This document shows, piece by piece, positions 68-15,916 of a stretch of 32,000 bases of DNA. The stretch's first letter is position 1, and the number at the start of each line of letters is the position of its first letter. Under the pieces are notes generated by a model, which saw nothing but the letters and a program-made list of their open reading frames with translations, did not search any database and was not told the DNA's origin. The position numbers and the translations under genes were made by a program. The DNA comes from an uncultured bacterium (GTDB lineage Bacteria; Margulisbacteria; WOR-1; CAVSGV01). The DNA lies in contig OY969425.1 in NCBI GenBank assembly GCA_963699255.1, positions 1,020,001 through 1,052,000 on the forward strand. Reading direction: 5' to 3'.

Positions 68-3000
68 TCAGGTTCTTCTTGACCCGACCGTTGCAGCTTT
101 CTTCCCCCGGGTCCCACTGCAGGATGGCGGTTTGCAAATTCTTTTCCCCAGCGTTATGGGGTTCTTTATGGTCTTGTATTCATTTCCCACCTGGATCTTG
201 AGATCTTTAAGGCGCTGATCATCATTGACGTTAAAATACAGGCTGTTAAAGACTATCCCTTTATCTTTCATCTTCTGCGCAAGGCTGTTCAGGAATTCCT
301 TCGGATTATCAAGCGCCCACTGCTCGTTCTTTTGGTCCGCCTTTTCAGATTTGGTCCCTATCATGGCGTTCACGGCGGCGGGCGTCAGGTATCCTTCATA
401 GTTTTTGACGAATGCCTGTATAAAATCCCAGCCTATGCTGATGGAGCTTTCGCCCTGAAAGTAATCTTTATCCTTTGCGTGGCACGGCTTATCATCATTT
501 TCAGCGAAGAACGTTCCATTTTTTTTCGCTTCGACTTCTTTCTTGAACAGGATCTCCTTTAATCCTATCACCCTGGTATTATCCACAGCTTCCAGGGCTT
601 TTCGGTTGGCGGGCGTCGGCATTGTTAAAAGGGAATAATGGATAGGGTCCCACAAAAAGTCATATACGAGCTTCTGCCATATGCTCTTACTGCCCTTTTG
701 ACCGCCTTCCTTTGCCGCTTTCCTTTGGGCCTCCTGATCAGCGATGTACTCTCTTTCTTGTTTGGGCTCCGCCTCCTGGGTGACGCGTGAGATAACGTTA
801 TATAGCCGCCTTAAGATAATTAGGACCTGGTTGGCTTCCTCCGTGGCCTCCACATCTTCGGTCTCCCCGTTCTTTAAAATGACCGATTCATTCGCATTTT
901 TGATCATGTCCTCATCAATGTAAAATCTTCCATCCTGCACATAATCCGCCACCCTGTTTATGGCACGAATTTGGTTCGGGTCAAGCTGCTGCTTATAAGG
1001 GCTGTTACTGGCGAGCTTATCCTGCCAGTTGGCCAACGCTCTTAAATAGGCCGGAGATAGATAATCTGTCCCTTCTATCGTCAAAGTTTTGCCTTTCATA
1101 TGTATAGGATTAGGCGCGTAGCCCTGATCAGCAAGATAGAGCATTATGCTGAGTATCGGCAGTTCTTCGACAACTTCATGGTGATCCTTATCGGGATTCA
1201 ATGATATTGTATTTATATTGTCCCCTGATATTATCTTCCATGTCTTTTTGACAACTTTTTTGACAATAGGTTCCCTGACGATCTTATATCCCGGCGCCGC
1301 CTTGTCCTGCTCATTTTTATTTTCCGATATGTGGGACATGTTCGCATTTTCGGAAAGCAGTGACTGGGCCATGGTCCCGTCTATCACAAGATATTCCTTT
1401 TCCTGTTGATCCTTTATGAGCGGGACATCCTTCAGGGACGCGTAATTTTTTGTCATTACCCCCAGAATTTGATCGGCAGCCGATAAAAGGCTGTTTTGAT
1501 CCAGCTTTTCAGCTGAAGAAAGGCCCAATTCATCTATCAGTTGCTGGGCAATGAACCCCCCGAGTTCCGAGATCTTCGCGATCTTCTTCTTCTTTTCCTC
1601 CAGATCCATCTGATTATTTTTGATTATCTGCAAATTGCATCCAATATTGAATTTGATGTTCAATTCCTGTGCGTTCAAATTCATGATCTGACCGTTCACC
1701 TGCTTGTTGATGAAAGCCTCATATTGCTTAAGGTAAGCTTGCATGGCTTTCTCGTCTATCGTTCCCCCATCTTTCTTGGCGGACGCCCGCAACTCTTTTT
1801 CCTTTGCGTCCTTTTGCTTTTCCGCGGCATCTTTTTGCTTCTTTATTTCATTTTTTATGTTGGCACTCTGTGTTTGAATGTTCGCCAGATATTCATCGTT
1901 CTCTTTGCGTGTGCGGTCCAGCTGCCCAAGGACTTCGTCAAGGTTTTCTTGAGATATTTTCTTTATTTCCGCGACTATAGATCCCTGCATATATTTAATG
2001 AGCCCGCCCTGGAAATTTTGAGCGCTGGTTTGCTTCAATAAATCAGATATCACCTGCAGGGCGACATTACAGGCCATTTTCAGGTCCTCATCAGCGGTCC
2101 CCCCTTTATCTTTGTCCACCGTTTTTTCAAGCAATTTGAACGACAGCCCCAGGAACTCGGCCGGCTGGTTCTCTTCCGGGCTCAGATCCGCGTTCTTATA
2201 TCCGGAAATATCATATACAAGGTCCGTATCGGTTTGCGGGTCTTTTCCAAGATGAAGGCAATTGACCAGCAAAGGTTTTAATATGTCCATCTCAAAACAT
2301 TTCGGGACATCCACAGGCCCTGAAAAAGATCCGTTCTCAAAATAGTAGATCTTCAGGTCCCTTACGGCGTCAGCGGAATTCGCGGCTTTTTGGGCCTCCT
2401 GAAAGACCTCATTTATCGCCTTTTTATCATCCGCACAGACAGAGCTTTCGTTTGATATTTTTTTCATAATATCCTGGGAAAGCCCGGCAATGACAAGTTT
2501 TCCATTTAAATATGTTATCGCCGCGGTGTTAAGTCCTTGAATATACGTTATTGTGGCTGGCGCCAGAGTAACGGCTTTTTCAGCGCTCCCCTTTACATAG
2601 ACCAGGATCAGTTTTTTGCCGGCTCCGGTCATCGCTTCCAGGCTCTGCCGCACCTCGCTGACCGAGCTTTGCGATCCGCTCTTTGCAATGGCCGCCTTAA
2701 TGGCCCTGTCACGATCCTCGCAGTCTTTAGGCGAATAGGCCGTAAGGGAAAGATGTTTCAGGATACTGGCGGGCAATCGCCCTCCATACCGCGATAAGAT
2801 ATTTGAAAGTATTTTCTCCGGGTCATCCTTTGTATCGGCCCTGGCCTGCTGGATAATGTCCCTGATATCCTGGTCCTGGGCGAGACACGACAGGAACTCC
2901 TTTAAAAATGGATCGTTCGAAGGATAACTGATATTGACTAAAAGTCCCTCATCCTGCGTCCCGTCGCTGAGGGAATACTTCACTTCCTTGGCAATACCCA

Positions 3001-3634
3001 CCTGGCCGGAAAAGGAATCAGGAAGGACCTGATATGTTAATAGCCCTTTTTCCAGAAGATCCAGGTTCTTGCTGTATTCGCTCCAGAGAAGATCATTGGC
3101 GGGTTCGTCGTAAGGCGTAAGCAATCCCACTTTCCTGGCCAGCAGGCGTTCTCCGAATTTACAGAAATCCTTTTGTCCGGAGTAATAAATCCCGATCTTA
3201 TCTATAAGGCTTTTCAGTTTGGCCAGGTATTCCTGCTGCCCTTCTAGCGTTTCCGGCACAGCGTCCAGAGTTTTGGAATTATCCCCGCCAAAAATATCCT
3301 TTGTGAGCTTTTCGGCGTCCACCGCTCCGCAAACGTTACATATATATGTATCGATATCTCTTTTTATCTCCGCGATCCGGAGGTATCTTTTATAAATGGT
3401 CCTGGCTAACTTTAATTGCTGCGCAAACAAAAGGTCCTTTTTCTCGGCATCGCTCTTATTTTTAAAGTCCGGGTCGGACATCGTAGTCTTCCAGATGGCG
3501 TCAAATTCATCTTTAAAATTATCAACAACAGTCCCGTCTTTGTTCATTGTTGTGTAGAACCTGGCCATTTTAAGGATGAAAGAATCCGCCCTTTTTTTCT
3601 CTATTCCATGCGCCGGATCTTTATAATACTTCAC
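68..3634 (-). CDS. hypothetical protein (1188 aa), soluble, central coiled-coil, no recognisable catalytic motif
   Basis: Uninterrupted 3.57-kb ORF. Its ATG overlaps the stop of the upstream ORF by 4 nt (3631-3634), suggesting translational coupling. Residues ~555-690 (nt ~1565-1972) are heptad-like and K/E/Q/N-rich (EIKKISQENLDEVLGQLDRTRKENDEYLANIQTQSANIKNEIKKQKDAAEKQKDAKEKELRA). No N-terminal signal peptide or TM-length hydrophobic stretch. No family-diagnostic motif seen. Confidence 0.7.
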   Translation of the reverse strand: MKYYKDPAHGIEKKRADSFILKMARFYTTMNKDGTVVDNFKDEFDAIWKTTMSDPDFKNKSDAEKKDLLFAQQLKLARTIYKRYLRIAEIKRDIDTYICNVCGAVDAEKLTKDIFGGDNSKTLDAVPETLEGQQEYLAKLKSLIDKIGIYYSGQKDFCKFGERLLARKVGLLTPYDEPANDLLWSEYSKNLDLLEKGLLTYQVLPDSFSGQVGIAKEVKYSLSDGTQDEGLLVNISYPSNDPFLKEFLSCLAQDQDIRDIIQQARADTKDDPEKILSNILSRYGGRLPASILKHLSLTAYSPKDCEDRDRAIKAAIAKSGSQSSVSEVRQSLEAMTGAGKKLILVYVKGSAEKAVTLAPATITYIQGLNTAAITYLNGKLVIAGLSQDIMKKISNESSVCADDKKAINEVFQEAQKAANSADAVRDLKIYYFENGSFSGPVDVPKCFEMDILKPLLVNCLHLGKDPQTDTDLVYDISGYKNADLSPEENQPAEFLGLSFKLLEKTVDKDKGGTADEDLKMACNVALQVISDLLKQTSAQNFQGGLIKYMQGSIVAEIKKISQENLDEVLGQLDRTRKENDEYLANIQTQSANIKNEIKKQKDAAEKQKDAKEKELRASAKKDGGTIDEKAMQAYLKQYEAFINKQVNGQIMNLNAQELNIKFNIGCNLQIIKNNQMDLEEKKKKIAKISELGGFIAQQLIDELGLSSAEKLDQNSLLSAADQILGVMTKNYASLKDVPLIKDQQEKEYLVIDGTMAQSLLSENANMSHISENKNEQDKAAPGYKIVREPIVKKVVKKTWKIISGDNINTISLNPDKDHHEVVEELPILSIMLYLADQGYAPNPIHMKGKTLTIEGTDYLSPAYLRALANWQDKLASNSPYKQQLDPNQIRAINRVADYVQDGRFYIDEDMIKNANESVILKNGETEDVEATEEANQVLIILRRLYNVISRVTQEAEPKQEREYIADQEAQRKAAKEGGQKGSKSIWQKLVYDFLWDPIHYSLLTMPTPANRKALEAVDNTRVIGLKEILFKKEVEAKKNGTFFAENDDKPCHAKDKDYFQGESSISIGWDFIQAFVKNYEGYLTPAAVNAMIGTKSEKADQKNEQWALDNPKEFLNSLAQKMKDKGIVFNSLYFNVNDDQRLKDLKIQVGNEYKTIKNPITLGKRICKPPSCSGTRGKKAATVGSRRT

Positions 3635-4632
3635 CAGAAGCTGTTCATTCTCCAGGTTTTCGGCGCCCCTCCCGGCTCCGCCATTGTTGCCGGACCGATA
3701 TCGTCCTCCACATCCTTTTCGTTTTGAAGGATGTCCTTTATGTCCCCCTGCGACAGACTTGAGTTGAATTTATTCAGGCATTCCTTTTGCGCGTTTATTA
3801 TATCTTTTAATTGATCATTGCTCTGGTCAATGAAGTTCTCCCCGTATTCGATGAACATATCATTCATTTCTTTCGTACCGATCTGCTGCCCGCCCTTAAG
3901 TGGTTTCTTGCATTGTTCGGCCAGCTGGCCCAGCGCGCCGTAGAGCGGATCTTCGCCGGTAGCAAGCCTTAAAACATATTTTCCCCCGTTTTGGCAATGC
4001 ACATAATTTATATCGGCGTCTTTCACATTGAGACAGGCAACGCCCAGCGGGACATCTGTTCCGTTCACATTGCCTCCCAGCGACACAAAGACCGTTCTTT
4101 CAGTTTTTATGTCTTTCAGCTCCTGCAGGTTATCGTCCATTTTCCGGACATAAGCATCCACCACCTGGCGCGGACTATTATTGTAAGCGGAAAAAGCCCA
4201 CTTTAAAGAAGTCAATAATTGAGGGGTGTCGTCATAATTGATAGCGTATCCCAGGCTCTCGAGCATTACAACAAAGGTCTTTAGTGCGAAATATTCCTCG
4301 ATCCCGGGAGCGTTATTTTCCAGCAGCTTTGAACTGTTCAGGTTGTTCTTAACGCAGTTCATGACCTTCCGCGCAAAGTCCGGGTCGTTCGCGGGAGCGA
4401 TCGGATCAGAGGAGTATCCTGTTTTCTCAAAGGCAAAAGAAATGTACGCGTCAACGGGATCGGTGGAGTTCTTGGATGAATCGATGAAAAGCGCGGAAGA
4501 ATTCTGCGGCGCTGTTATGGGAGAGTAAGAAGATGTCCGGTTCCCTGCCGGCGCTGACTGGTCTTTCGTCCTGCTCCCCTGATATACCGCCCCATTCGTA
4601 CCCGGATCGGTTTTATTGACCTCTAAGCTCAT
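3631..4632 (-). CDS. hypothetical protein (333 aa), S/T/P/N/Q-rich probably disordered N-terminus
   Basis: ORF begins 10 nt after the stop of the 552-aa ORF, with AAGGGAAAA upstream of the ATG, and overlaps the next ORF by 4 nt. The first ~50 aa are low-complexity (TDPGTNGAVYQGSRTKDQSAPAGNRTSSYSPITAPQNSS). No recognisable domain motif. Confidence 0.7.
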   Translation of the reverse strand: MSLEVNKTDPGTNGAVYQGSRTKDQSAPAGNRTSSYSPITAPQNSSALFIDSSKNSTDPVDAYISFAFEKTGYSSDPIAPANDPDFARKVMNCVKNNLNSSKLLENNAPGIEEYFALKTFVVMLESLGYAINYDDTPQLLTSLKWAFSAYNNSPRQVVDAYVRKMDDNLQELKDIKTERTVFVSLGGNVNGTDVPLGVACLNVKDADINYVHCQNGGKYVLRLATGEDPLYGALGQLAEQCKKPLKGGQQIGTKEMNDMFIEYGENFIDQSNDQLKDIINAQKECLNKFNSSLSQGDIKDILQNEKDVEDDIGPATMAEPGGAPKTWRMNSFW

Positions 4633-4642
4633 TTGTTTTCCC

Positions 4643-6301
4643 TTATGAATTCATGATCTGGGACAACCCTTTTATATCTGCCCAATTCTTGTTTTTCATG
4701 TCTTTCAACCAATTTGACAGGTTATTATTCGCATCGTCTGTGATAAGTCCATTAATTTGCGCTTTCAACCACTGGTGCAGCCCCGTGACCTTTGAACTAT
4801 CATTATCTTTGAAACTGATAATTTGATTGATCAGGCCTGTAATTTTCGCTCGCTGTTCATTAAAGGCCTTGCTTTGTGCCGCAAGATCCGAATACTTGGC
4901 TTTTATTGGATTATACCCGTTGAAAGCTTTTCCAATGTCCTTTTCAAGTGATTCGACCGTTGCTGGTGGCTTCGGTTGTTCGTGGTGCTGAGGGTCCGTA
5001 ATCTTGCCATCCTCTCCTTTAAGCTGCATGATCAGTTTTGACTTGTCCGTGTATTTCCCCGACGGCAAATGCAGCAGATAATCTACGCATTTGGCCTTTA
5101 GATCCTGTTCGGACATATAGGCCTTTATTCCTGATAATTTGGAAAGATCATAATCGGTGTTATTGATCTTTTTAGCTTTATTTTCCATCCATTGAGAGAG
5201 GACCGTTTCCAGAGCTTCTGTATTTTCCGGATGGTTTTCCTGGCAGGACAGGTAAAAGTTCTCGGCCGATTTAACGAGATCTGTTTTTGTAGCGTACAGC
5301 TTCGCCAATTCCGCCAGATTGATATACTTATAATCGGCCGGGTCTTCGGCTTTGATCTGCTCGCGGATCTCGATCTGTTTATTGATATCAGAGTTCTCAT
5401 CTTTTGCAAGATCATCCTTTAGCTTTTGGACCTTCGAAGGCTCTGTAACTTTGTCCCCGTCCGGGTCATCCTTCTTCGCCTCTTTTGTAATATATTTCAG
5501 GATGCTCCCTTCACTTATATCCCCTTCGAACTTGGGCAGCTTGACCGTTATCTGGAATGTTTGTTCCTGGACCGTGGTCCCTAATTTGGATATTAACGGA
5601 AGGGAAGCAAGGAATCTGCCTACCGATTCCAGGTCGACAACCGTTGTCTGCCCGTGGAATCTTTGCGTTAAAGCATCATATGCTTCCTGTGTAAGGTAAG
5701 CTTGTAGATCCTTGAATGTTGTATCTTTTGTTATTGGATGGTCGCCGATCTTGCCGCCCACAATCTTATCTCCCGCGTTGATCACCGCGTCCAGGTCAGC
5801 CATCTCAAAGCCTACCGCCGTATTGTAAAGCTTTATCGCGTCATTTTCGTCATTCAAGCCGAAAGCCAACTTATATTTTTTAATGGTATCATTGAACAAC
5901 TTGATGTCTCCCGCGGTTATTTCCTCGTCAGGAGCGCCTTTGGTATTCATCTTCATGAGGATCAGATCGTATAATACCGTGGATATCCCGAGTGTCTTCG
6001 CCTCATTTCTATCGATCATCTTGTCCATCAATATTGCATTTTCATCTATGCCCGTTAAATGATTTTGCGTGACCCACAGGCCAATGAATGTCCTGGCCAA
6101 AGCCATATCGTCCCCGGCGTCATTATTGTTCGGATCCTTCGCCTTGGGATCGTTCTGTCCAGGCTCGGTCTTCTTATCGGATACAAACGCCGAGCCGATC
6201 TGATCAGAAAGCAGATCATACTTTATTTTTTGGCGCAAGCTTATTATCTTCTTTTGATTCTTCTTTTGCCTCAAGGAATTGATCACGAAATTTCTTATCA
6301 T
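4643..6301 (-). CDS. hypothetical protein (up to 552 aa; start uncertain)
   Basis: Long ORF in the same operon. The longest form overlaps the upstream 326-aa ORF by 86 nt. Alternative in-frame starts are TTG at 6238 and ATG at 6106, the latter preceded by GGGGA. No signal peptide, TM segment or known motif. Confidence 0.65.
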   Translation of the reverse strand: MIRNFVINSLRQKKNQKKIISLRQKIKYDLLSDQIGSAFVSDKKTEPGQNDPKAKDPNNNDAGDDMALARTFIGLWVTQNHLTGIDENAILMDKMIDRNEAKTLGISTVLYDLILMKMNTKGAPDEEITAGDIKLFNDTIKKYKLAFGLNDENDAIKLYNTAVGFEMADLDAVINAGDKIVGGKIGDHPITKDTTFKDLQAYLTQEAYDALTQRFHGQTTVVDLESVGRFLASLPLISKLGTTVQEQTFQITVKLPKFEGDISEGSILKYITKEAKKDDPDGDKVTEPSKVQKLKDDLAKDENSDINKQIEIREQIKAEDPADYKYINLAELAKLYATKTDLVKSAENFYLSCQENHPENTEALETVLSQWMENKAKKINNTDYDLSKLSGIKAYMSEQDLKAKCVDYLLHLPSGKYTDKSKLIMQLKGEDGKITDPQHHEQPKPPATVESLEKDIGKAFNGYNPIKAKYSDLAAQSKAFNEQRAKITGLINQIISFKDNDSSKVTGLHQWLKAQINGLITDDANNNLSNWLKDMKNKNWADIKGLSQIMNS

Positions 6302-7196
6302 TACATGCTTTTACAATAGCATCTTTTACCTTGCTGATATTATCTGGAGTTATTTGGAATTTGACTGGATCTTTAACCATTTCTGTAATGATCTGCGTTT
6401 TCGCCGCCTGCGCATTCGGATCTGTCCCTACAGGTAAAGTTTCCAGTTCAACCATTCTGCTTTTCAACGCCGTCTCAGCTGCGCTCTTTTTATCCGCTTC
6501 GGTTATTATATTTTTTGCATTTGAAAGGGTGGGGTCGTCTTCATCAATGCGAAGACTAACTGCTTTGTTATAAGCCTGCCTGATCTGTTCAATGTCCTTG
6601 GATTTAAGAGCTGCTTCAAGCTCGCCCATCGCTGTCTTTTTTTCTTCTGCTGTGCTTCCCTGTTCCAGTTCAATGTCCGGTTTTTCATTTTGCTTTTGAT
6701 CGACAAAGCTTTTGGTTAATTTCTCCGTATCTTTAATTCCCGCCGCGCTGCAAAGCTCGGTAATAAAGGCCTCATTGGATATTTCCGAAAACGGGGTTTT
6801 CTTGTCATCTAATTGTTTCATTAACTGAAGAACATCTATTCCCTTACCTTTTAACGTACTTCTTACCTCTGAGAGGTCATATTTGCCTGTTTCAACAGCA
6901 TCGTTATTAAAGATATCTCCGATCTTATCAATCACTTTTGCCGAAGAAGTATTACTCCTATCGTATTTTCGCATTTCAATTTTGATATTTTCAATATCGC
7001 CTGAGTCCGGCTTGTCGTCGCCTTGCGCTAAAGCTTCTTTGCTCCCGAAGATAAGAGCTATATCTTTCACGTTGTCATTGCAAAAGAATTTGCTCAGCGA
7101 GGCCCCCAGATCATCATATTTGGTTCTGGTCGGGTTGGTCCTTGCTTGCAAGTTTGTCTTTGCATCTACCAATTTTATTCTATCTAAATCTCCCAT
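6216..7196 (-). CDS. hypothetical protein (326 aa), acidic/lysine-rich, first gene of the orphan operon
   Basis: ATG at 7196 is preceded on the minus strand by GGAGGAG and a 7-nt spacer (ggatGGAGGAGataaaaaATG). The ORF is uninterrupted. No recognisable motif. Confidence 0.7.
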   Translation of the reverse strand: MGDLDRIKLVDAKTNLQARTNPTRTKYDDLGASLSKFFCNDNVKDIALIFGSKEALAQGDDKPDSGDIENIKIEMRKYDRSNTSSAKVIDKIGDIFNNDAVETGKYDLSEVRSTLKGKGIDVLQLMKQLDDKKTPFSEISNEAFITELCSAAGIKDTEKLTKSFVDQKQNEKPDIELEQGSTAEEKKTAMGELEAALKSKDIEQIRQAYNKAVSLRIDEDDPTLSNAKNIITEADKKSAAETALKSRMVELETLPVGTDPNAQAAKTQIITEMVKDPVKFQITPDNISKVKDAIVKACNDKKFRDQFLEAKEESKEDNKLAPKNKV

Positions 7197-7230
7197 TTTT
7201 TATCTCCTCCATCCCCGCCCCTTGGCAGGT

Positions 7231-7258
7231 TTTATAAATTAGGGTATATAAAACGCAA
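7231..7258 (-). promoter_or_regulatory. candidate sigma-70 promoter for the orphan operon (TTGCGT-N16-TATAAA on the minus strand)
   Basis: Minus-strand reading is ttgcgt tttatataccctaatt tataaa, about 35 nt upstream of the ATG at 7196. The -35 matches only 3/6 and the -10 matches 5/6. Confidence 0.3.
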
Positions 7259-7446
7259 AAGGCGAAATAGCAGATCTATCGCCTATGTTAATATTTAACC
7301 CTTCACATACATATATTCGTGTTATTAAGCCGAAAACTTGCATGAATTCTCGGTTTTTAGGCGTGCTGATTTTCCGATAAATTGATCTCATATTCCCCTC
7401 TACATAATATATCGTCAAAAATGACCGGAAATTTCATTTGAGAATA

Positions 7447-7483
7447 ATGGCAAATAAAGGCAAAGGATGGCAATTGATGGCAG
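7447..7483. repeat. four direct repeats A(T/A)GGCA(A/G) with exact 10-bp phasing
   Basis: ATGGCAA at 7447, AAGGCAA at 7457, ATGGCAA at 7467 and ATGGCAG at 7477. The array lies in the 390-nt gap between the metallopeptidase stop (7587) and the orphan-operon start (7196). Confidence 0.6.
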
Positions 7484-7586
7484 TGAAAGGGCTTAGGGCG
7501 CAGGATTTAAGGCATATGAAGTTATTGTTTTTACCTAAGCCTTAAGCCGTATGATCTTCAGTCTCTTCTTTTGCCTTCAATCGCCC

Positions 7587-8426
7587 TCATTCCCCTTTTT
7601 CCCTATTATTGAATACTTCATTCTCCAGGAATTCGTAGTTGTTCATCCAGCTGTAATCGCCGTCTTCCGCGGATCTTTGGGCCAGTTTCCTGAACTCCTC
7701 GTTCCTGTCAATGAACCACTCGTAAACCCAGGCGAATTTCTCCAGCGGGTTCTCGTCCCAGGGATTCCTTTTCCTCCTGCCGTCATCAACGACAATCTCC
7801 CCGAACAGGTCCTGGTTCCTGGCAAGTGATTTAAGATTGAACCGCTCCTGCACGTCCTGCCACCTGTCCTTCGGGATCTCCACCTTCCTTGTCGCTATCT
7901 GGTACATCCTGTTCCCGGGCGCGAAATACCTCCTGAATTCCAGCATGTTGTAACCGCTGTCGGCTATGAACCGCATGAACTTCGCGAATTCCAGGTTAAA
8001 ATGGTTGACGGCGTGGCCTATCTCGTGGGTCAGGACCTCGGGGATCTCCTTCAGTGTCAGGTTGTCGAACAGGTATATCCTTTTATTGTCGCTGTCGTAA
8101 GCGCCGCCGGCGTGGACAAGGGTTTTAAGGAGTCTTATCCTTCCTTCCTTGTTCTTCACCACCTGCTTCACGCCTATAAGATGTTGCTTTTGTTTTCGTT
8201 TCTTGAATTTCTTCAGGACATCTTCGATCACAAGAAGTTCGGGGGTGATGAATTTGACGTCCGTGTCAAGGATCTCTATGCCGAATTCCGAAGAAACCCT
8301 TTTTCTTATCGGCATGCCTTCCGGGATCGGGACCGCGTCCGGAACGGTCTTTGGCGCGAGCGGTTGCGTCACCAGAGTGTAATTTATCGGCGAAGTCAGA
8401 ACGCTATTTATGCGCGATATTTCCAT
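7587..8426 (-). CDS. putative zinc metallopeptidase, HExxH gluzincin type (ATLF / MtfA-like)
   Basis: HEIGH is encoded at 8013-8027 (minus strand CAC GAG ATA GGC CAC) within LTHEIGHAVNH. A downstream NPLEKFAWVYEWF segment resembles the E-x-FA third-ligand helix of anthrax lethal factor-like and MtfA-like peptidases. An upstream GGAYDSDNKRIYLF segment is typical of these folds. No signal peptide. Confidence 0.65.
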   Translation of the reverse strand: MEISRINSVLTSPINYTLVTQPLAPKTVPDAVPIPEGMPIRKRVSSEFGIEILDTDVKFITPELLVIEDVLKKFKKRKQKQHLIGVKQVVKNKEGRIRLLKTLVHAGGAYDSDNKRIYLFDNLTLKEIPEVLTHEIGHAVNHFNLEFAKFMRFIADSGYNMLEFRRYFAPGNRMYQIATRKVEIPKDRWQDVQERFNLKSLARNQDLFGEIVVDDGRRKRNPWDENPLEKFAWVYEWFIDRNEEFRKLAQRSAEDGDYSWMNNYEFLENEVFNNREKGE

Positions 8427-8559: not shown

Positions 8560-9414
8560 TTACTTTACCAGCATCGTCCCTATTCCGCGGGTGGTGAATA
8601 TCTCCAGCAGAAGCGAGTGGGGCAGTTTTCCGTCGATTATGTGGACGCGCGCGACGCCGGACAAGATCGCGTCCAGTCCGTAGCTGACCTTGGGTATCAT
8701 CCCGCCGGAGATGGTGCCTTTGTCTATCAGGCCCTGTGCGCTGGAAGAATTTATTTCCGATATCAACTTCCCGTCCTTATCCAGCACGCCGGAAACATCG
8801 GTCATGAGCACAAGCTTGTCGGCCTTCATAAGTTTCGCGATCGTACCGGCGGCAGTATCGGCATTTATGTTGTAGAGCTTGTTGTCCGGCCCTATCCCCA
8901 CCGACGAAATAACGGGTATCTTCCCCAGTTTCAATACTTTCAGGAGTTTAGACTTTTTTATCTTGTCAACTTCGCCCACATAGCCGATATCGACTTTTCC
9001 GTTCACCAGGAGTTTTTTGGCCTTTATAAGGAATCCGCGCCGTCCGGCGAACTGCACAGGCCGTCCTCCGTGCTTCTTAACGATTTTCGCTACTTCGCGA
9101 TTAACTTTCCACAATGCCTTGTCAACAACCTGCATGGTCTCGATCCCGGTCTTGCGGAACCCCATGACGAATTCAACCTTGATCTTCTTTTTCTCAAGGA
9201 GTTTGTTTATCTCTTTTCCGCCCCCATGGACCAGGACGATCCTGATCCCGATCAGGTTGAGAAGCACGATATCCTGAAGGACCTTATCTTTTAATTCCGG
9301 GTCCGTCATTGCCGCGCCGCCGTATTTGACCACAAAAAGCTTCCCGTGGAACTTCTGAAGATATGGAAGCGCCTCTATAACCGCTTCCGCTCTTTTTATT
9401 AAAAATTTATACAT
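8560..9414 (-). CDS. argB: acetylglutamate kinase
   Basis: KLFVVKYGGAAM nucleotide-binding N-terminus, VLVHGGG, NINADTAAG, and an amino-acid kinase fold throughout. Lies in argC-argJ-argB order. Confidence 0.95.
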   Translation of the reverse strand: MYKFLIKRAEAVIEALPYLQKFHGKLFVVKYGGAAMTDPELKDKVLQDIVLLNLIGIRIVLVHGGGKEINKLLEKKKIKVEFVMGFRKTGIETMQVVDKALWKVNREVAKIVKKHGGRPVQFAGRRGFLIKAKKLLVNGKVDIGYVGEVDKIKKSKLLKVLKLGKIPVISSVGIGPDNKLYNINADTAAGTIAKLMKADKLVLMTDVSGVLDKDGKLISEINSSSAQGLIDKGTISGGMIPKVSYGLDAILSGVARVHIIDGKLPHSLLLEIFTTRGIGTMLVK

Positions 9415-14716: not shown

Positions 14717-15916
14717 TTATCCCTTTAGTTCCCCCAATATCCTCGATTTGGGTATATCAAGAAGGTTTGCCGCCATGTCTTCCGACCCGGTCTTTTTGTG
14801 GAAAATATTCACAAGGCCTTTTTCAACTATATTTTTAAAATCCAACAGGTTCTCCGTCTGCGAGGACTGCAGGTTCTCATAGACCATTTTACTCCCCAGC
14901 TGGATATCCTTAAGTGTAATTTCGCCGCTTTCACAGGCAATGACGGCGTTCTCAATGACGCACTCCAGCTCGCGGTAATTTCCGGGCCAGCCGTAGTCGC
15001 ATATCATCTTTAGAGCATCGAAGCTTATGCCGTCAATAATCTTGCCGTATTTTGCCGAATATCTGTCGATGCAGGCCATCAGGATATCCGGCATGTCTTC
15101 CTTTCTTTCTCTTAAGCCGGGAACGATTATCTTTTCCCAGTCAACGAACGCCTCGCTATCGCCAAGCTCCTGAACGCCGGCTATTACGGTTAAATTCCCC
15201 TTCAACGACTTGCTCTTTATGTAATCCAAAATGCTCGCCCGGTGTTTTTCGTCGGCGGCGCCGAATCTCTCGAAATAAATAATATCCGAGGAAGCAAGGG
15301 CTTCCTGGAGCACCATCCAGAATATGTTTTCAAGGCTTTCCTTCCTGAAAACCAGCATATCGATCGTGGTCAGCTTTCTGCCCCTGCCGGAACAATCTCG
15401 CACGATCCTCACCAGGCTTGAAATGTCTATCCCGGCCTCGGAAACAAAAAGGATGTTCTTTCTGTCTCTTACAGCGAGCTCGAGATTTTTGAACAGCGTC
15501 CTTATCTTATTACCGCTGCCGGAAAGCCACCCGCCGGGCCGGCATGTGATCCTTATTTCGCCCTCCCCGCGCGACAGATTGCTCTTGACCGAGCCAAGCA
15601 GTCTTTCGCTTAAAGCGGGCTTCCTTATGAAATCGGCCACGCCGATCTTAGAGGCTTCTACGGCTTCGGGTATCGTAACAGTTGAAGAGAGCATTATGAC
15701 GGCGGATGCCGGTGACAGCTTTTTTATTTCTTTGTACAAAGAAAGCCCCGACACTTCCTTCATATCGCAGTCAATGACGGTAAGTATGCCGGGGATCTCT
15801 CCGGCCTTTTTTAGAACTTCGCTGCGGCTTGAAGCTGTGTCTATATCATAGGATTCCTTTAGGGTGGACATGACCGCCGGATCGCTGCTTAACACCAATA
15901 TATTGTTTTTTTTCAT
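14717..15916 (-). CDS. NtrC-family response regulator with degenerate AAA+ (sigma-54 activator-like) domain and C-terminal Fis-type HTH
   Basis: Receiver domain (VIDCDM, IMLSS, FIRKP). C-terminal EBP signatures GLRERKEDMPDIL and WPGNYRELECVIENA. HTH AANLLDIPKSRIL. Walker A is replaced by VSEAGIDI (nt 15422-15445), no GAFTGA loop is present, and Walker B DE is replaced by FERF. Confidence 0.8.
   Translation of the reverse strand: MKKNNILVLSSDPAVMSTLKESYDIDTASSRSEVLKKAGEIPGILTVIDCDMKEVSGLSLYKEIKKLSPASAVIMLSSTVTIPEAVEASKIGVADFIRKPALSERLLGSVKSNLSRGEGEIRITCRPGGWLSGSGNKIRTLFKNLELAVRDRKNILFVSEAGIDISSLVRIVRDCSGRGRKLTTIDMLVFRKESLENIFWMVLQEALASSDIIYFERFGAADEKHRASILDYIKSKSLKGNLTVIAGVQELGDSEAFVDWEKIIVPGLRERKEDMPDILMACIDRYSAKYGKIIDGISFDALKMICDYGWPGNYRELECVIENAVIACESGEITLKDIQLGSKMVYENLQSSQTENLLDFKNIVEKGLVNIFHKKTGSEDMAANLLDIPKSRILGELKG

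Follow-up and report, generated by a model that had tools for sequence, protein, structure and literature searches.

Two fast-diversifying genes read as four open reading frames at a fixed locus of an uncultured WOR-1 bacterium

Introduction

Four long open reading frames (ORFs) that lie in a row on one strand, overlapping or nearly touching, and that resemble nothing in the family databases raise the question of whether they encode the subunits of one system or whether the boundaries between them are something other than gene boundaries. They are found at one edge of the window, the 32,000-nucleotide stretch analysed here (contig OY969425.1 of assembly GCA_963699255.1, positions 1,020,001 to 1,052,000) from an uncultured bacterium of the WOR-1 lineage of Margulisbacteria, on the minus strand at 6216-7196 (326 aa), 4643-6301 (552 aa), 3631-4632 (333 aa) and 68-3634 (1188 aa, with a GTG start codon). 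An initial annotation, made from the sequence alone, had described them as a tightly coupled operon of four orphan proteins. The ORFs themselves, the geometry of their junctions (an 86-nt overlap, a 10-nt gap and a 4-nt overlap) and the Shine-Dalgarno sequence GGAGGAG ahead of the 326-aa ORF (7204-7210) are all reproduced, as is the lack of hydrophobic runs of transmembrane (TM) length in the four ORFs in a Kyte-Doolittle scan. Their orphan status also holds, with no significant Pfam, NCBIfam, PADLOC or PHROG matches in profile scans and no PDB sequence matches to any of the four. The count of four genes fails: the interval holds two genes, termed A and B, and the 86-nt overlap, the 4-nt overlap and a supposed fifth gene starting at nt 44 are frameshift junctions within them.

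Gene structure of the locus

The two genes, the junction between them and the three sites at which the reading frame is lost are as follows.

4643-7196, minus strand: gene A, a single gene of about 850 aa that the assembly reads as the 326-aa and 552-aa ORFs
4633-4642, minus strand: the A-stop/B-start junction (10 nt), with a Shine-Dalgarno-like AAGGGA before the B ATG that overlaps the A stop codon
1-4632, minus strand: gene B, a giant gene of which the N-terminal ~1,544 codons lie in the window and the rest past nt 1
6216-6220, minus strand: frameshift site 1, where a surplus T at 6218 (GTA[T]GATC) makes the TGA stop of the 326-aa ORF
3655-3673, minus strand: frameshift site 2, one base missing in GGGAGGGGCGCCGAAAACC, the exact base being inferred
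126-145, minus strand: frameshift site 3, where the T-run at 136-138 is short by one T

The short-read Logan contig L001 (4.3 kb) differs from the window over 4,263 nt in a single position, the T at 6218, which it lacks, and it encodes gene A uninterrupted as one 850-aa protein (P0005). The relatives likewise carry one A ORF each (640-862 aa), and tblastn of an 836-aa homologue against window A switches from frame -2 to frame -3. Gene B is divided in the assembly into the 333-aa ORF, the 1188-aa ORF and the run-off ORF, which are collinear pieces. Among relatives, B is a full-length single ORF of 2,424 aa in L002, 2,654 aa in L005 and 2,405 aa in L018, reaches at least 2,186-2,536 aa in L003, L007, L011 and L016, and forms an uninterrupted giant ORF in every relative except L013. 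The protein P0008, a 2,654-aa single ORF, is collinear with the window across three frames: its residues 2-253 map to frame -1 (the 333-aa ORF), residues 277-1410 to frame -3 (the 1188-aa ORF, with homology extending upstream of its GTG) and residues 1389-1447 to frame -2 (the run-off ORF). The 2,424-aa ORF of L002 is also collinear with window B.

Sites 2 and 3 are placed by alignment with relatives and by ORF repair. At site 2, P0008 homology leaves frame -1 at 3736 and frame -3 begins at 3658, and L001 matches the window down to 3666, where it ends, adjoining the site. At site 3, an added T gives KRILQTAILQWDPG, the P0008 counterpart of which is KRILQNAIGQWEPG. One base added within 3655-3673, together with one T at 136-138, yields a stop-free ORF of 1,544 codons from 4632 to nt 1. 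The 10 nt at 4633-4642 are the only true intergenic junction in the four-ORF interval, and the A-B spacing is likewise short in L002, L018, L007 and L011. The public annotation lists the ORF pieces as separate proteins, with four database entries for the two genes.

Origin of the frameshifts

The three indels may be assembly errors or real inactivation. If the frameshifts are real, A and B would be recently inactivated pseudogenes of a fast-turnover locus and the four ORFs their decay fragments, which is quite possible although not what we would expect; the system would then be non-functional in the window genome, and the A-B copy carried here may indeed be dead. Three indels fall within 7.1 kb as against none in ~22 kb of flanking genes, dead alleles are frequent at loci that turn over in arms races, and the pieces are called as separate proteins in the public annotation. 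Because the indels cluster though homopolymer density is equal in locus and flanks, uniform sequencing error is unlikely (P ~1e-4). Against decay, one of the three indels is missing from the independent short-read contig, which is otherwise 100% identical and whose end at 3666 beside site 2 hints at read heterogeneity; neither nonsense mutations nor further disruptions occur across ~2,400 codons; disruption by indels alone is what errors in a long-read consensus typically produce, and the single contig of 1.77 Mb suggests a long-read assembly. Frame-disrupted homologues had initially been named as a sign against a functional system, and that sign applies in reverse: the disrupted copy is the window's own, and the relatives are intact, the B of L013 excepted.

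Two further readings would make the junctions functional. Programmed ribosomal frameshifting or phase variation could switch the expression of A and B, and the concentration of indels in the A-B locus, the location of sites 2 and 3 within short homopolymer runs and the polymorphism of site 1 between two assemblies of the same sequence would suit such a switch. It is nevertheless very improbable, given that the runs, at only 2-4 nt, fall far below known phase-variable tracts, that site 1 is not a repeat, that neither a slippery heptamer nor a stimulatory structure was identified and that no relative is frameshifted at these sites. Scarcely any weight can be given to four separate proteins (326, 552, 333 and 1188 aa) acting as a translationally coupled multi-subunit system, even if the ORFs are long and their overlaps look like coupling junctions. 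Relatives have two genes, the homology of their single ORFs spans three of the four junctions, that is, each one save the 10-nt gap, and the tails and heads at these junctions are out-of-frame sequence, as in the tail ...GKRICKPPSCSGTRGKKAATVGSRRT that runs into a stop. More generally, ‘tightly coupled’ overlapping ORFs in single-contig metagenome-assembled genomes may be frameshift scars.

Synteny, variability and selection

The initial annotation overlooked three features of the surroundings, namely a strongly conserved HExxH protein next door, the hypervariability of the locus, which is extreme, and the run-off of the cluster past the window. The first of these forms the upstream boundary of the variable stretch.

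7587-8426, minus strand: gene H, 279 aa, a soluble protein with an HExxH motif (HEIGH)

The gene order argB, H, A, B is found in at least nine relatives, a conservation of position that the initial annotation had proposed to check, and past B a signal-peptidase-I-like gene follows in L005 and L002, the two relatives sequenced beyond B. H retains 70-88% protein identity in all relatives, with HEIGH invariant across all homologues, and the flanking genes show 84-96% protein identity. Between the window and L018, nucleotide identity of 83-90% is kept over a 13-kb flank as far as the end of H, beyond which it collapses. Protein identity falls to ~43% in A, over part of its length, and window B shares 33-38% identity with the B of L005 and 22% with that of L002, while no similarity is detectable to the B of L018, L003, L007, L011 or L016. 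Modules are shared in mosaic fashion among the window, L002 and L018. Window B has an inserted segment.

2330-2587, minus strand: inserted B module of ~85 aa, absent from the orthologue P0008 (tblastn gap between 2597 and 2365)

At 40% identity (E = 4e-5), this module recurs in P0009, an unrelated protein of 391 aa. A and especially B diverge or are swapped extremely fast, in mosaic fashion, within a lineage-specific slot, and the locus offers a clean natural case of extreme allelic turnover in which the flanks retain ~85-90% nucleotide identity, B is unalignable and the promoter elements are invariant.

The initial view that these are genuine coding sequences and not junk is borne out by the retained position and by the ratios of substitution. 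In the alignable parts, A has a dN/dS of 0.17-0.40 and B one of 0.16-0.25, as compared with 0.03-0.15 for the flanks, and values of 0.16-0.40 mark A and B as real genes. The dS of A (1.0-2.8) exceeds that of the flanks (~0.55), suggesting an exchange of old alleles through recombination. The locus is not mobile or viral in origin, its genomic context is chromosomal, and collections of phages, plasmids and viral contigs hold no relatives. GC content, which had been thought too noisy to call the cluster foreign, is somewhat below that of the arg genes, but the GC3 of B (0.55-0.58) is in the native range, low values being confined to the 5' third of A (GC3 0.385).

Database searches with the proteins themselves found little. 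Only two real relatives emerged when 5.8 billion proteins, and exhaustively 1.84 billion representatives, were searched. With the 1188-aa ORF as query, exhaustive phmmer found P0008 and two marginal partial matches, and a word-index search found the query alone; the word-index search with the 850-aa A protein found P0007, and that with a profile of 11 A proteins only P0007 and P0004. Anchoring on the conserved neighbours H and ArgJ recovered the family where these protein searches failed, and is a practical route to families that such searches miss.

Region upstream of A

Conserved elements precede A even at loci whose A and B proteins barely align.

7197-7586, minus strand: AT-rich putative regulatory region between H and A
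7391-7436, minus strand: P1-like element upstream of A, TGAAAT-N16-CGATAT..GTAGAGGGG
7311-7344, minus strand: P2 element upstream of A, invariant CATGCAAGTTTT..ACGA.ATAT
7261-7283, minus strand: leader hairpin, as folded

The region also contains ATCAG repeats. The 12-mer CATGCAAGTTTT occurs once per locus, always in the same position, and the forms TGAAAT-N16-CGATAT and TGCAAG-N17-CGA(A/T)(T/A)AT are conserved across loci; the bipartite elements stand before A in all of them, with a second copy ahead of B in L016. These elements may correspond to the ECF consensus, a bipartite motif of an ‘AAC’-type -35 element and a ‘CGT’-type -10 element with a spacer of 16-17 nt that a cognate ECF sigma factor would read, and A and B may be expressed from such ECF-sigma-like putative promoters. 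A generic scan for sigma-70 promoters and terminators gave chance-level results only, and the leader region has no Rfam matches.

Domains and predicted structure

No known domain is detectable in window A, in window B or in P0008, the closest orthologue. The clues to function come from other alleles and from two regions of the window proteins.

5394-6116, minus strand: conserved core of A (~residues 360-600), with the motif LFDLID..G..DG.IT..EI..F
1526-2020, minus strand: two long helices of the 1188-aa B fragment (residues 539-621 and 628-703), by DSSP on the AlphaFold2 (AF2) model, pLDDT 50-68

When the A proteins of the window and L002 are made into a profile, it matches the A of L008, L003, L016, L005 and L011 only in the core (also alignment A3). 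The core motif may be EF-hand-like, and one member of the A family gives a weak EF-hand_5 match. The coiled coil that had been proposed in the 1188-aa ORF is matched by long helices at residues 539-703, which the P0008 alignment covers too, but the confidence of the model is low, and the helix pair is probably a coiled-coil hairpin. Structure prediction and a Foldseek search had been suggested as a check, and gave little, the AF2 models, run on alignments of two sequences only, being unusable (pLDDT 46 for A and 37 for B) and the A model having no PDB match by Foldseek at E below 3.

Among the relatives, LysM occurs in the same slot in the B of L002 and L018 and is the only match in PDB sequence searches with four full B proteins, and SH3_3 is found weakly, below the Pfam cutoff, in the A of L005 and L007. 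Neither LysM nor SH3_3 exceeds the Pfam threshold in window A or in the N-terminal part of B that the window covers, and the LysM and SecA-like features of other alleles lie in the C-terminal half. A SecA-like ATPase is present in the B of L016, where Walker A and DEAD motifs are intact, and also in L007 and L011. SecA_DEAD (PF07517) has no match in the window pieces or in full-length P0008, and hhalign against the SecA-like region of L016, L007 and L011 gives a probability of 0.1% for the window clade. A degenerate SecA P-loop in P0008 (…GTLSGESGK…) was considered and rejected by both hmmsearch and hhalign. Near the C-terminus, the B of L005, L002 and L018 bears Gly/Ala-rich amphipathic hydrophobic stretches; by the Kyte-Doolittle scan the A proteins all lack TM segments and the B of L005 has a single weak one. 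No secretion genes are located near the locus.

Proposed role

On balance it is probable that A and B are two co-transcribed genes at a fixed slot, diversifying rapidly and broken in this copy by three 1-nt indels. As to what the pair does, our best guess, held with low confidence, is the interaction of a rapidly diversifying pair of proteins with the cell wall or with other cells. Soluble and lacking a signal peptide, the two would act at the cell envelope or at the wall or membrane of another cell after export by a non-classical route, and a giant protein with its partner would form an effector system, or one akin to an adhesin, that is shaped by arms-race or balancing selection. Of the roles first entertained for the ORFs, an effector or surface function is still live and the coupled four-subunit form is not.

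The slot might alternatively be an anti-phage defence hotspot, in which A, B and a protease component H form a novel system and strains differ in the occupant. A fixed position with differing content between genomes that are ~85-90% identical would be expected of such a hotspot, and some B proteins do carry an ATPase/helicase-type (SecA_DEAD) domain next to a metalloprotease-like gene, but this reading is unlikely. The window proteins have no significant match in PADLOC-DB v2 (best E-values of 0.015-0.026, over short stretches), nuclease, methylase and mobile-element genes are absent, and the LysM and SH3_3 modules suggest peptidoglycan and not nucleic acid. Because all occupants keep the H-A-B order, the A core domain and the promoter elements, they are one orthologous system and not mixed insertions.

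Comparison with known systems

By its predicted motif, H is weakly metalloprotease-like. It has the ...RIYLFDNL...EIPEVLTHEIGH motif typical of the M48-type or minigluzincin metallopeptidases (Ste24/HtpX-like; DUF6782; PHROG 87), but differs from M48-type enzymes in being soluble without TM helices, and all scores lie under the curated cut-offs. These include DUF6782 (E = 1.4e-4, 21.6 bits, cut-off 27) and M48 (13.4 bits, cut-off 20.3); the match to the phrog_87 metallo-protease is weak (E = 1.6e-7), and similarity to Ste24p around the HExxH motif is weaker still (E = 0.3).

Hypervariable loci at fixed positions under recombination or balancing selection are known for surface antigens and for polymorphic toxins or effectors. 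With these the A-B locus shares an abrupt passage from conserved flanks to alleles that cannot be aligned, mosaic modules (window, L002 and L018), a dS inside the locus above that of the flanks and a dN/dS below 1. It differs in that no conserved N-terminal trafficking domain, recognisable toxin domain, immunity gene or secretion-system linkage was found.

The giant proteins of Omnitrophota, of 10-147 kaa, bear a divergent SecA_DEAD with or without SecA_PP_bind and no SecA scaffold or wing, and TM helices or signal peptides occur in 94% of those catalogued (West-Roberts et al. 2023, bioRxiv 10.1101/2023.11.21.568195; Nielsen & Lui 2026, bioRxiv 10.64898/2026.06.07.730766). The B proteins differ in length (~2.4-2.7 kaa, below 10,000 aa), the A and B proteins of the locus are all but devoid of TM helices and signal peptides, window B and its orthologue P0008 have no SecA-like domain, and T2SS and pilus genes are absent from the flanks. 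The arginine pathway would fit an Omnitrophota host without being diagnostic of one, and the window contains no rRNA gene or taxonomic marker. Like B, the Omnitrophota giants are very long and fast-evolving, have largely unannotated N-terminal regions and belong to uncultured bacteria with small genomes; the B of L007, L011 and L016 shares the divergent SecA_DEAD, with or without SecA_PP_bind and without the SecA scaffold or wing, and cell-wall-binding modules (LysM, SH3_3) are present in the locus proteins of some relatives also. A bolder proposal, which we regard as doubtful, is that A, B and H constitute a new system of an uncultured sediment lineage, in which a giant without signal peptide and its partner occupy a fixed slot, possibly under an ECF-type promoter, as ancient recombining mosaic alleles (LysM, SecA-like ATPase, novel modules) for strain-specific contact or attack, a compact, TM-less counterpart of the Omnitrophota giants. 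If A and B do mediate cell-cell or cell-wall interaction, they would offer a ‘small’ and tractable stand-in for the far larger, intractable giants found in uncultured bacteria with an episymbiotic or predatory habit.

Gene structure of the locus

The four minus-strand ORFs of the initial annotation are present at the positions claimed, with overlaps and gaps as stated, and the GGAGGAG Shine-Dalgarno sequence preceding them is confirmed at 7204-7210. As read in the window, they are:

6216-7196, minus strand: ORF of 326 aa
4643-6301, minus strand: ORF of 552 aa
3631-4632, minus strand: ORF of 333 aa
68-3634, minus strand: ORF of 1188 aa, nominal GTG start

Profile searches of Pfam, NCBIfam, PADLOC and PHROGs gave no meaningful match for any of the four products, so their orphan status holds, and a hydropathy scan bears out the lack of TM-length segments. 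The proposed four-gene operon is not upheld by comparison with related sequences (L001, P0007 and P0008), which point to two genes, A and B, split by frameshifts; nor is the four-subunit, translationally coupled system, the ORFs being fragments of these two genes.

In an exact-sequence look-up, the 326-aa protein shares a 90% cluster with both a 543-aa version of the following ORF and P0005, an 850-aa protein from the Logan contig L001 (4,263 bp; run ERR10755942). This contig equals the window at every base but one, an extra T in the window at 6218 (GTA[T]GATC) that creates the TGA stop closing the 326-aa ORF. The 86-nt overlap with the 552-aa ORF is thus a frameshift scar. P0007, an 836-aa A homologue (43% identical), is likewise a single ORF, aligning to window frame -2 and then to frame -3. 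By these alignments, the 326-aa and 552-aa ORFs are read as one gene, A.

The 1188-aa ORF had essentially a single relative in an exhaustive phmmer search, P0008 (2,654 aa), and tblastn with this protein is collinear with the window over three frames: residues 2-253 correspond to the 333-aa ORF, residues 277-1410 to the 1188-aa ORF, with homology extending upstream of the nominal GTG start, and residues 1389-1447 to the ORF leaving the window at nt 1. At its 3' end the 1188-aa ORF runs into out-of-frame sequence (ending in GKRICKPPSCSGTRGKKAATVGSRRT before the stop); one T added to the T-run at 136-138 yields KRILQTAILQWDPG, where P0008 has KRILQNAIGQWEPG. With this T and one base in 3655-3673 added, 4632→1 becomes a single stop-free ORF of 1,544 codons. 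The 333-aa, 1188-aa and run-off ORFs are thus best read as pieces of one giant gene, B, and the sole genuine intergenic junction among the pieces is the 10-nt gap from the A stop to the B ATG.

A conserved slot among relatives

With the highly conserved 279-aa HExxH protein encoded upstream of A (H; 7587-8426, minus strand) and a 91%-identical ArgJ cluster member as baits, 17 related loci were recovered. Wherever sequence suffices, argB leads, in some loci followed by an extra gene, then come H, a single A ORF (640-862 aa; 1,317 aa in L013) and one uninterrupted giant B ORF (2,424 aa in L002, 2,654 in L005 and 2,405 in L018; no less than 2,186-2,536 in L003, L007, L011 and L016). The sole departure is L013, where the 1,317-aa A is followed by a 392-aa ORF and then by an ORF that runs off after at least 1,378 aa. 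A signal-peptidase-I-like gene follows B in the two complete cases, and only the window carries a frame-disrupted copy. The extra gene encodes 650-811 aa (L003 7503-9938, L007 1187-3139, L009 8029-9981) and is TPR-rich in L003 and without domains in L007; its presence between argB and H in some relatives indicates plasticity at the locus's upstream edge too.

Origin of the frameshifts

Several observations favour an artefact, or heterogeneity, as the source of the frameshifts. The independent, otherwise identical L001 assembly lacks one of the three; all are 1-nt indels, with no nonsense mutation in ~2,400 codons; and the window comes from a 1.77-Mb single contig, probably a long-read assembly. 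The short-read contig L001 also stops exactly at window position 3666, at a G-run beside the second inferred site, as might be expected if length heterogeneity there had caused a branch in the assembly graph. Genuine inactivation of A and B in this genome appears somewhat doubtful. It would account for three indels in 7.1 kb against none in ~22 kb of neighbouring genes, a contrast that uniform error is unlikely to produce (P about 1e-4) because homopolymer and GATC densities are equal in the locus and its neighbours. Both lines of evidence would be accommodated by mis-polishing of a strain mixture at such a hypervariable locus.

The region between H and A

The H-A spacer (7197-7586, minus strand; 390 nt) is AT-rich and holds elements far better conserved than the A and B proteins:

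7391-7436, minus strand: TGAAAT-N16-CGATAT…GTAGAGGGG
H-A spacer, minus strand: ATCAG repeats, three or four copies
7311-7344, minus strand: invariant CATGCAAGTTTT-N13-ACGA(A/T)(T/A)AT, the 12-mer itself at 7333-7344
7261-7283: leader hairpin, z-scores -1.5 to -4.4 across loci, sequence varying by locus

The 12-mer CATGCAAGTTTT occurs exactly once, at constant position, in 13 of 18 loci, and the conserved elements lie at the same position upstream of A in L001-L003, L005-L007, L009-L011, L014-L016 and L018; L016 has a second 12-mer copy immediately upstream of B. In their bipartite shape the elements resemble ECF-sigma promoters; they may serve as a dual promoter of ECF type or as a site bound by a regulator. 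Transcription of A and B thus appears to start from one or more conserved promoters of their own.

Stem-loops, often followed by a T-rich run, lie between the second promoter-like element and the A Shine-Dalgarno sequence in the window, L018, L002, L008, L005 and L003. They match nothing in Rfam, and the leader stem-loop may be an attenuator or operator. Just upstream of the conserved promoter-like element at 7391-7436, the window carries four copies of a 10-nt tandem repeat (7443-7482; TTGCCAT-containing on the minus strand), none being seen in relatives.

Genomic setting, divergence and constraint

The neighbourhood consists of ordinary chromosomal genes, namely argB/J/C, AMMECR1, LigB, phosphomutase, a histidine kinase and response regulator, PEP synthase, PPDK and dnaG. 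The response regulator (14717-15916) combines a receiver with an AAA+ lid domain, and no sigma-54 activator ATPase core could be detected in the stretch separating the two; the precomputed Pfam list is identical for the L005 and L018 orthologues. GATC occurs ~8-9 times per kb across the whole window, inside and outside the locus, roughly twice the random tetramer expectation of 3.9 per kb. The 5' third of A (6216-7196) has the lowest GC and GC3 in the window (GC 0.40; GC3 0.385, compared with a GC3 of 0.53-0.69 in other genes), for which a recombination-imported segment is one possible cause.

Conservation falls sharply at the end of H. Between the window and L018, ~13 kb of flank is 83-90% identical in nucleotides, whereas past H, A aligns only in patches (65-74%) and B nowhere. 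H is 70-88% identical among relatives as a protein. A is ~43% identical to that of L002 and L018 over part of its length, and in more distant loci only a ~200-aa core (window 5394-6116) can still be recognised. Window B shows 33-38% identity to that of L005 and 22% to that of L002 over ~450 aa, and neither BLASTP nor hmmsearch detected similarity between window B and that of L018, L003, L007, L011 or L016. Sharing is mosaic: the L018 and L002 B proteins have in common only a C-terminal LysM-plus-hydrophobic region. An ~85-aa module of window B (2330-2587; residues 350-435 of the 1188-aa ORF) has no counterpart in P0008 and is 40% identical to the N-terminal part of P0009, an unrelated 391-aa protein whose C-terminus resembles a formylglycine-generating-enzyme/sulfatase-modifying domain, evidence of module shuffling.

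By the Nei-Gojobori method, flanking genes show dN of 0.02-0.06 and dS of ~0.5-0.6. A shows dN of 0.42-0.47, dS of 1.0-2.8 and dN/dS of 0.17-0.40, and B against L005 a dN/dS of 0.16-0.25, these locus ratios being rough with dS near saturation. Both sequences thus evolve under constraint, which bears out the earlier view that the coding sequence is real. That dS is in excess within the locus points to old alleles swapped by recombination, beyond mere post-split acceleration. In argB (window 8560-9414 vs L018 11237-12091), identity is 84% with saturated dS (3.9); the adjacent argJ and argC show 91% identity and a dS of ~0.6. The identity of argB to its L002 counterpart is 96%. This pattern points to occasional recombination tracts reaching from the variable locus through H into argB.

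Functional hints and comparison with known systems

Sequence searches recognised no domain in window A and B or in P0008. AF2 models built on two-sequence alignments were unusable (pLDDT 46 and 37), and Foldseek with the A model gave no PDB match with E below 3. Among relatives, LysM occurs in B of L002 and L018, SH3_3 lies below threshold in A of L005 and L007, and B of L016, L007 and L011 contains a divergent but genuine SecA-type ATPase region, with an intact Walker A (DTGDGKT) and DEAD motif in L016 (PDB SecA E = 5e-12; NCBIfam SecA E = 5e-21). All three B proteins with the C-terminal part available have Gly/Ala-rich amphipathic hydrophobic stretches near the C-terminus. A degenerate SecA P-loop suspected in P0008 was unsupported by hmmsearch and hhalign.

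With low confidence, we infer that A and B would form a pair of rapidly diversifying proteins, exported by a non-classical route, that acts on a cell envelope, whether the cell's own or another's. That the slot is a defence hotspot is a weaker alternative, as all occupants share gene order, the A core and promoter elements, and the PADLOC search was without match. Phage, plasmid and viral-contig collections contained no relatives.

Long proteins of Omnitrophota, with unannotated N-terminal regions and a divergent SecA_DEAD, have been linked to cell-wall attack (10.1101/2023.11.21.568195; 10.64898/2026.06.07.730766). Those proteins exceed 10 kaa, whereas the present ones reach ~2.5 kaa, have neither TM helices nor signal peptides, and are not flanked by secretion or pilus genes. 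The locus is hypervariable and lineage-restricted, pairs A with the giant B under conserved regulation, and is fragmented by frameshifts in its window copy; its proteins belong among the fast-evolving long proteins known from uncultured bacteria, a loosely defined class.
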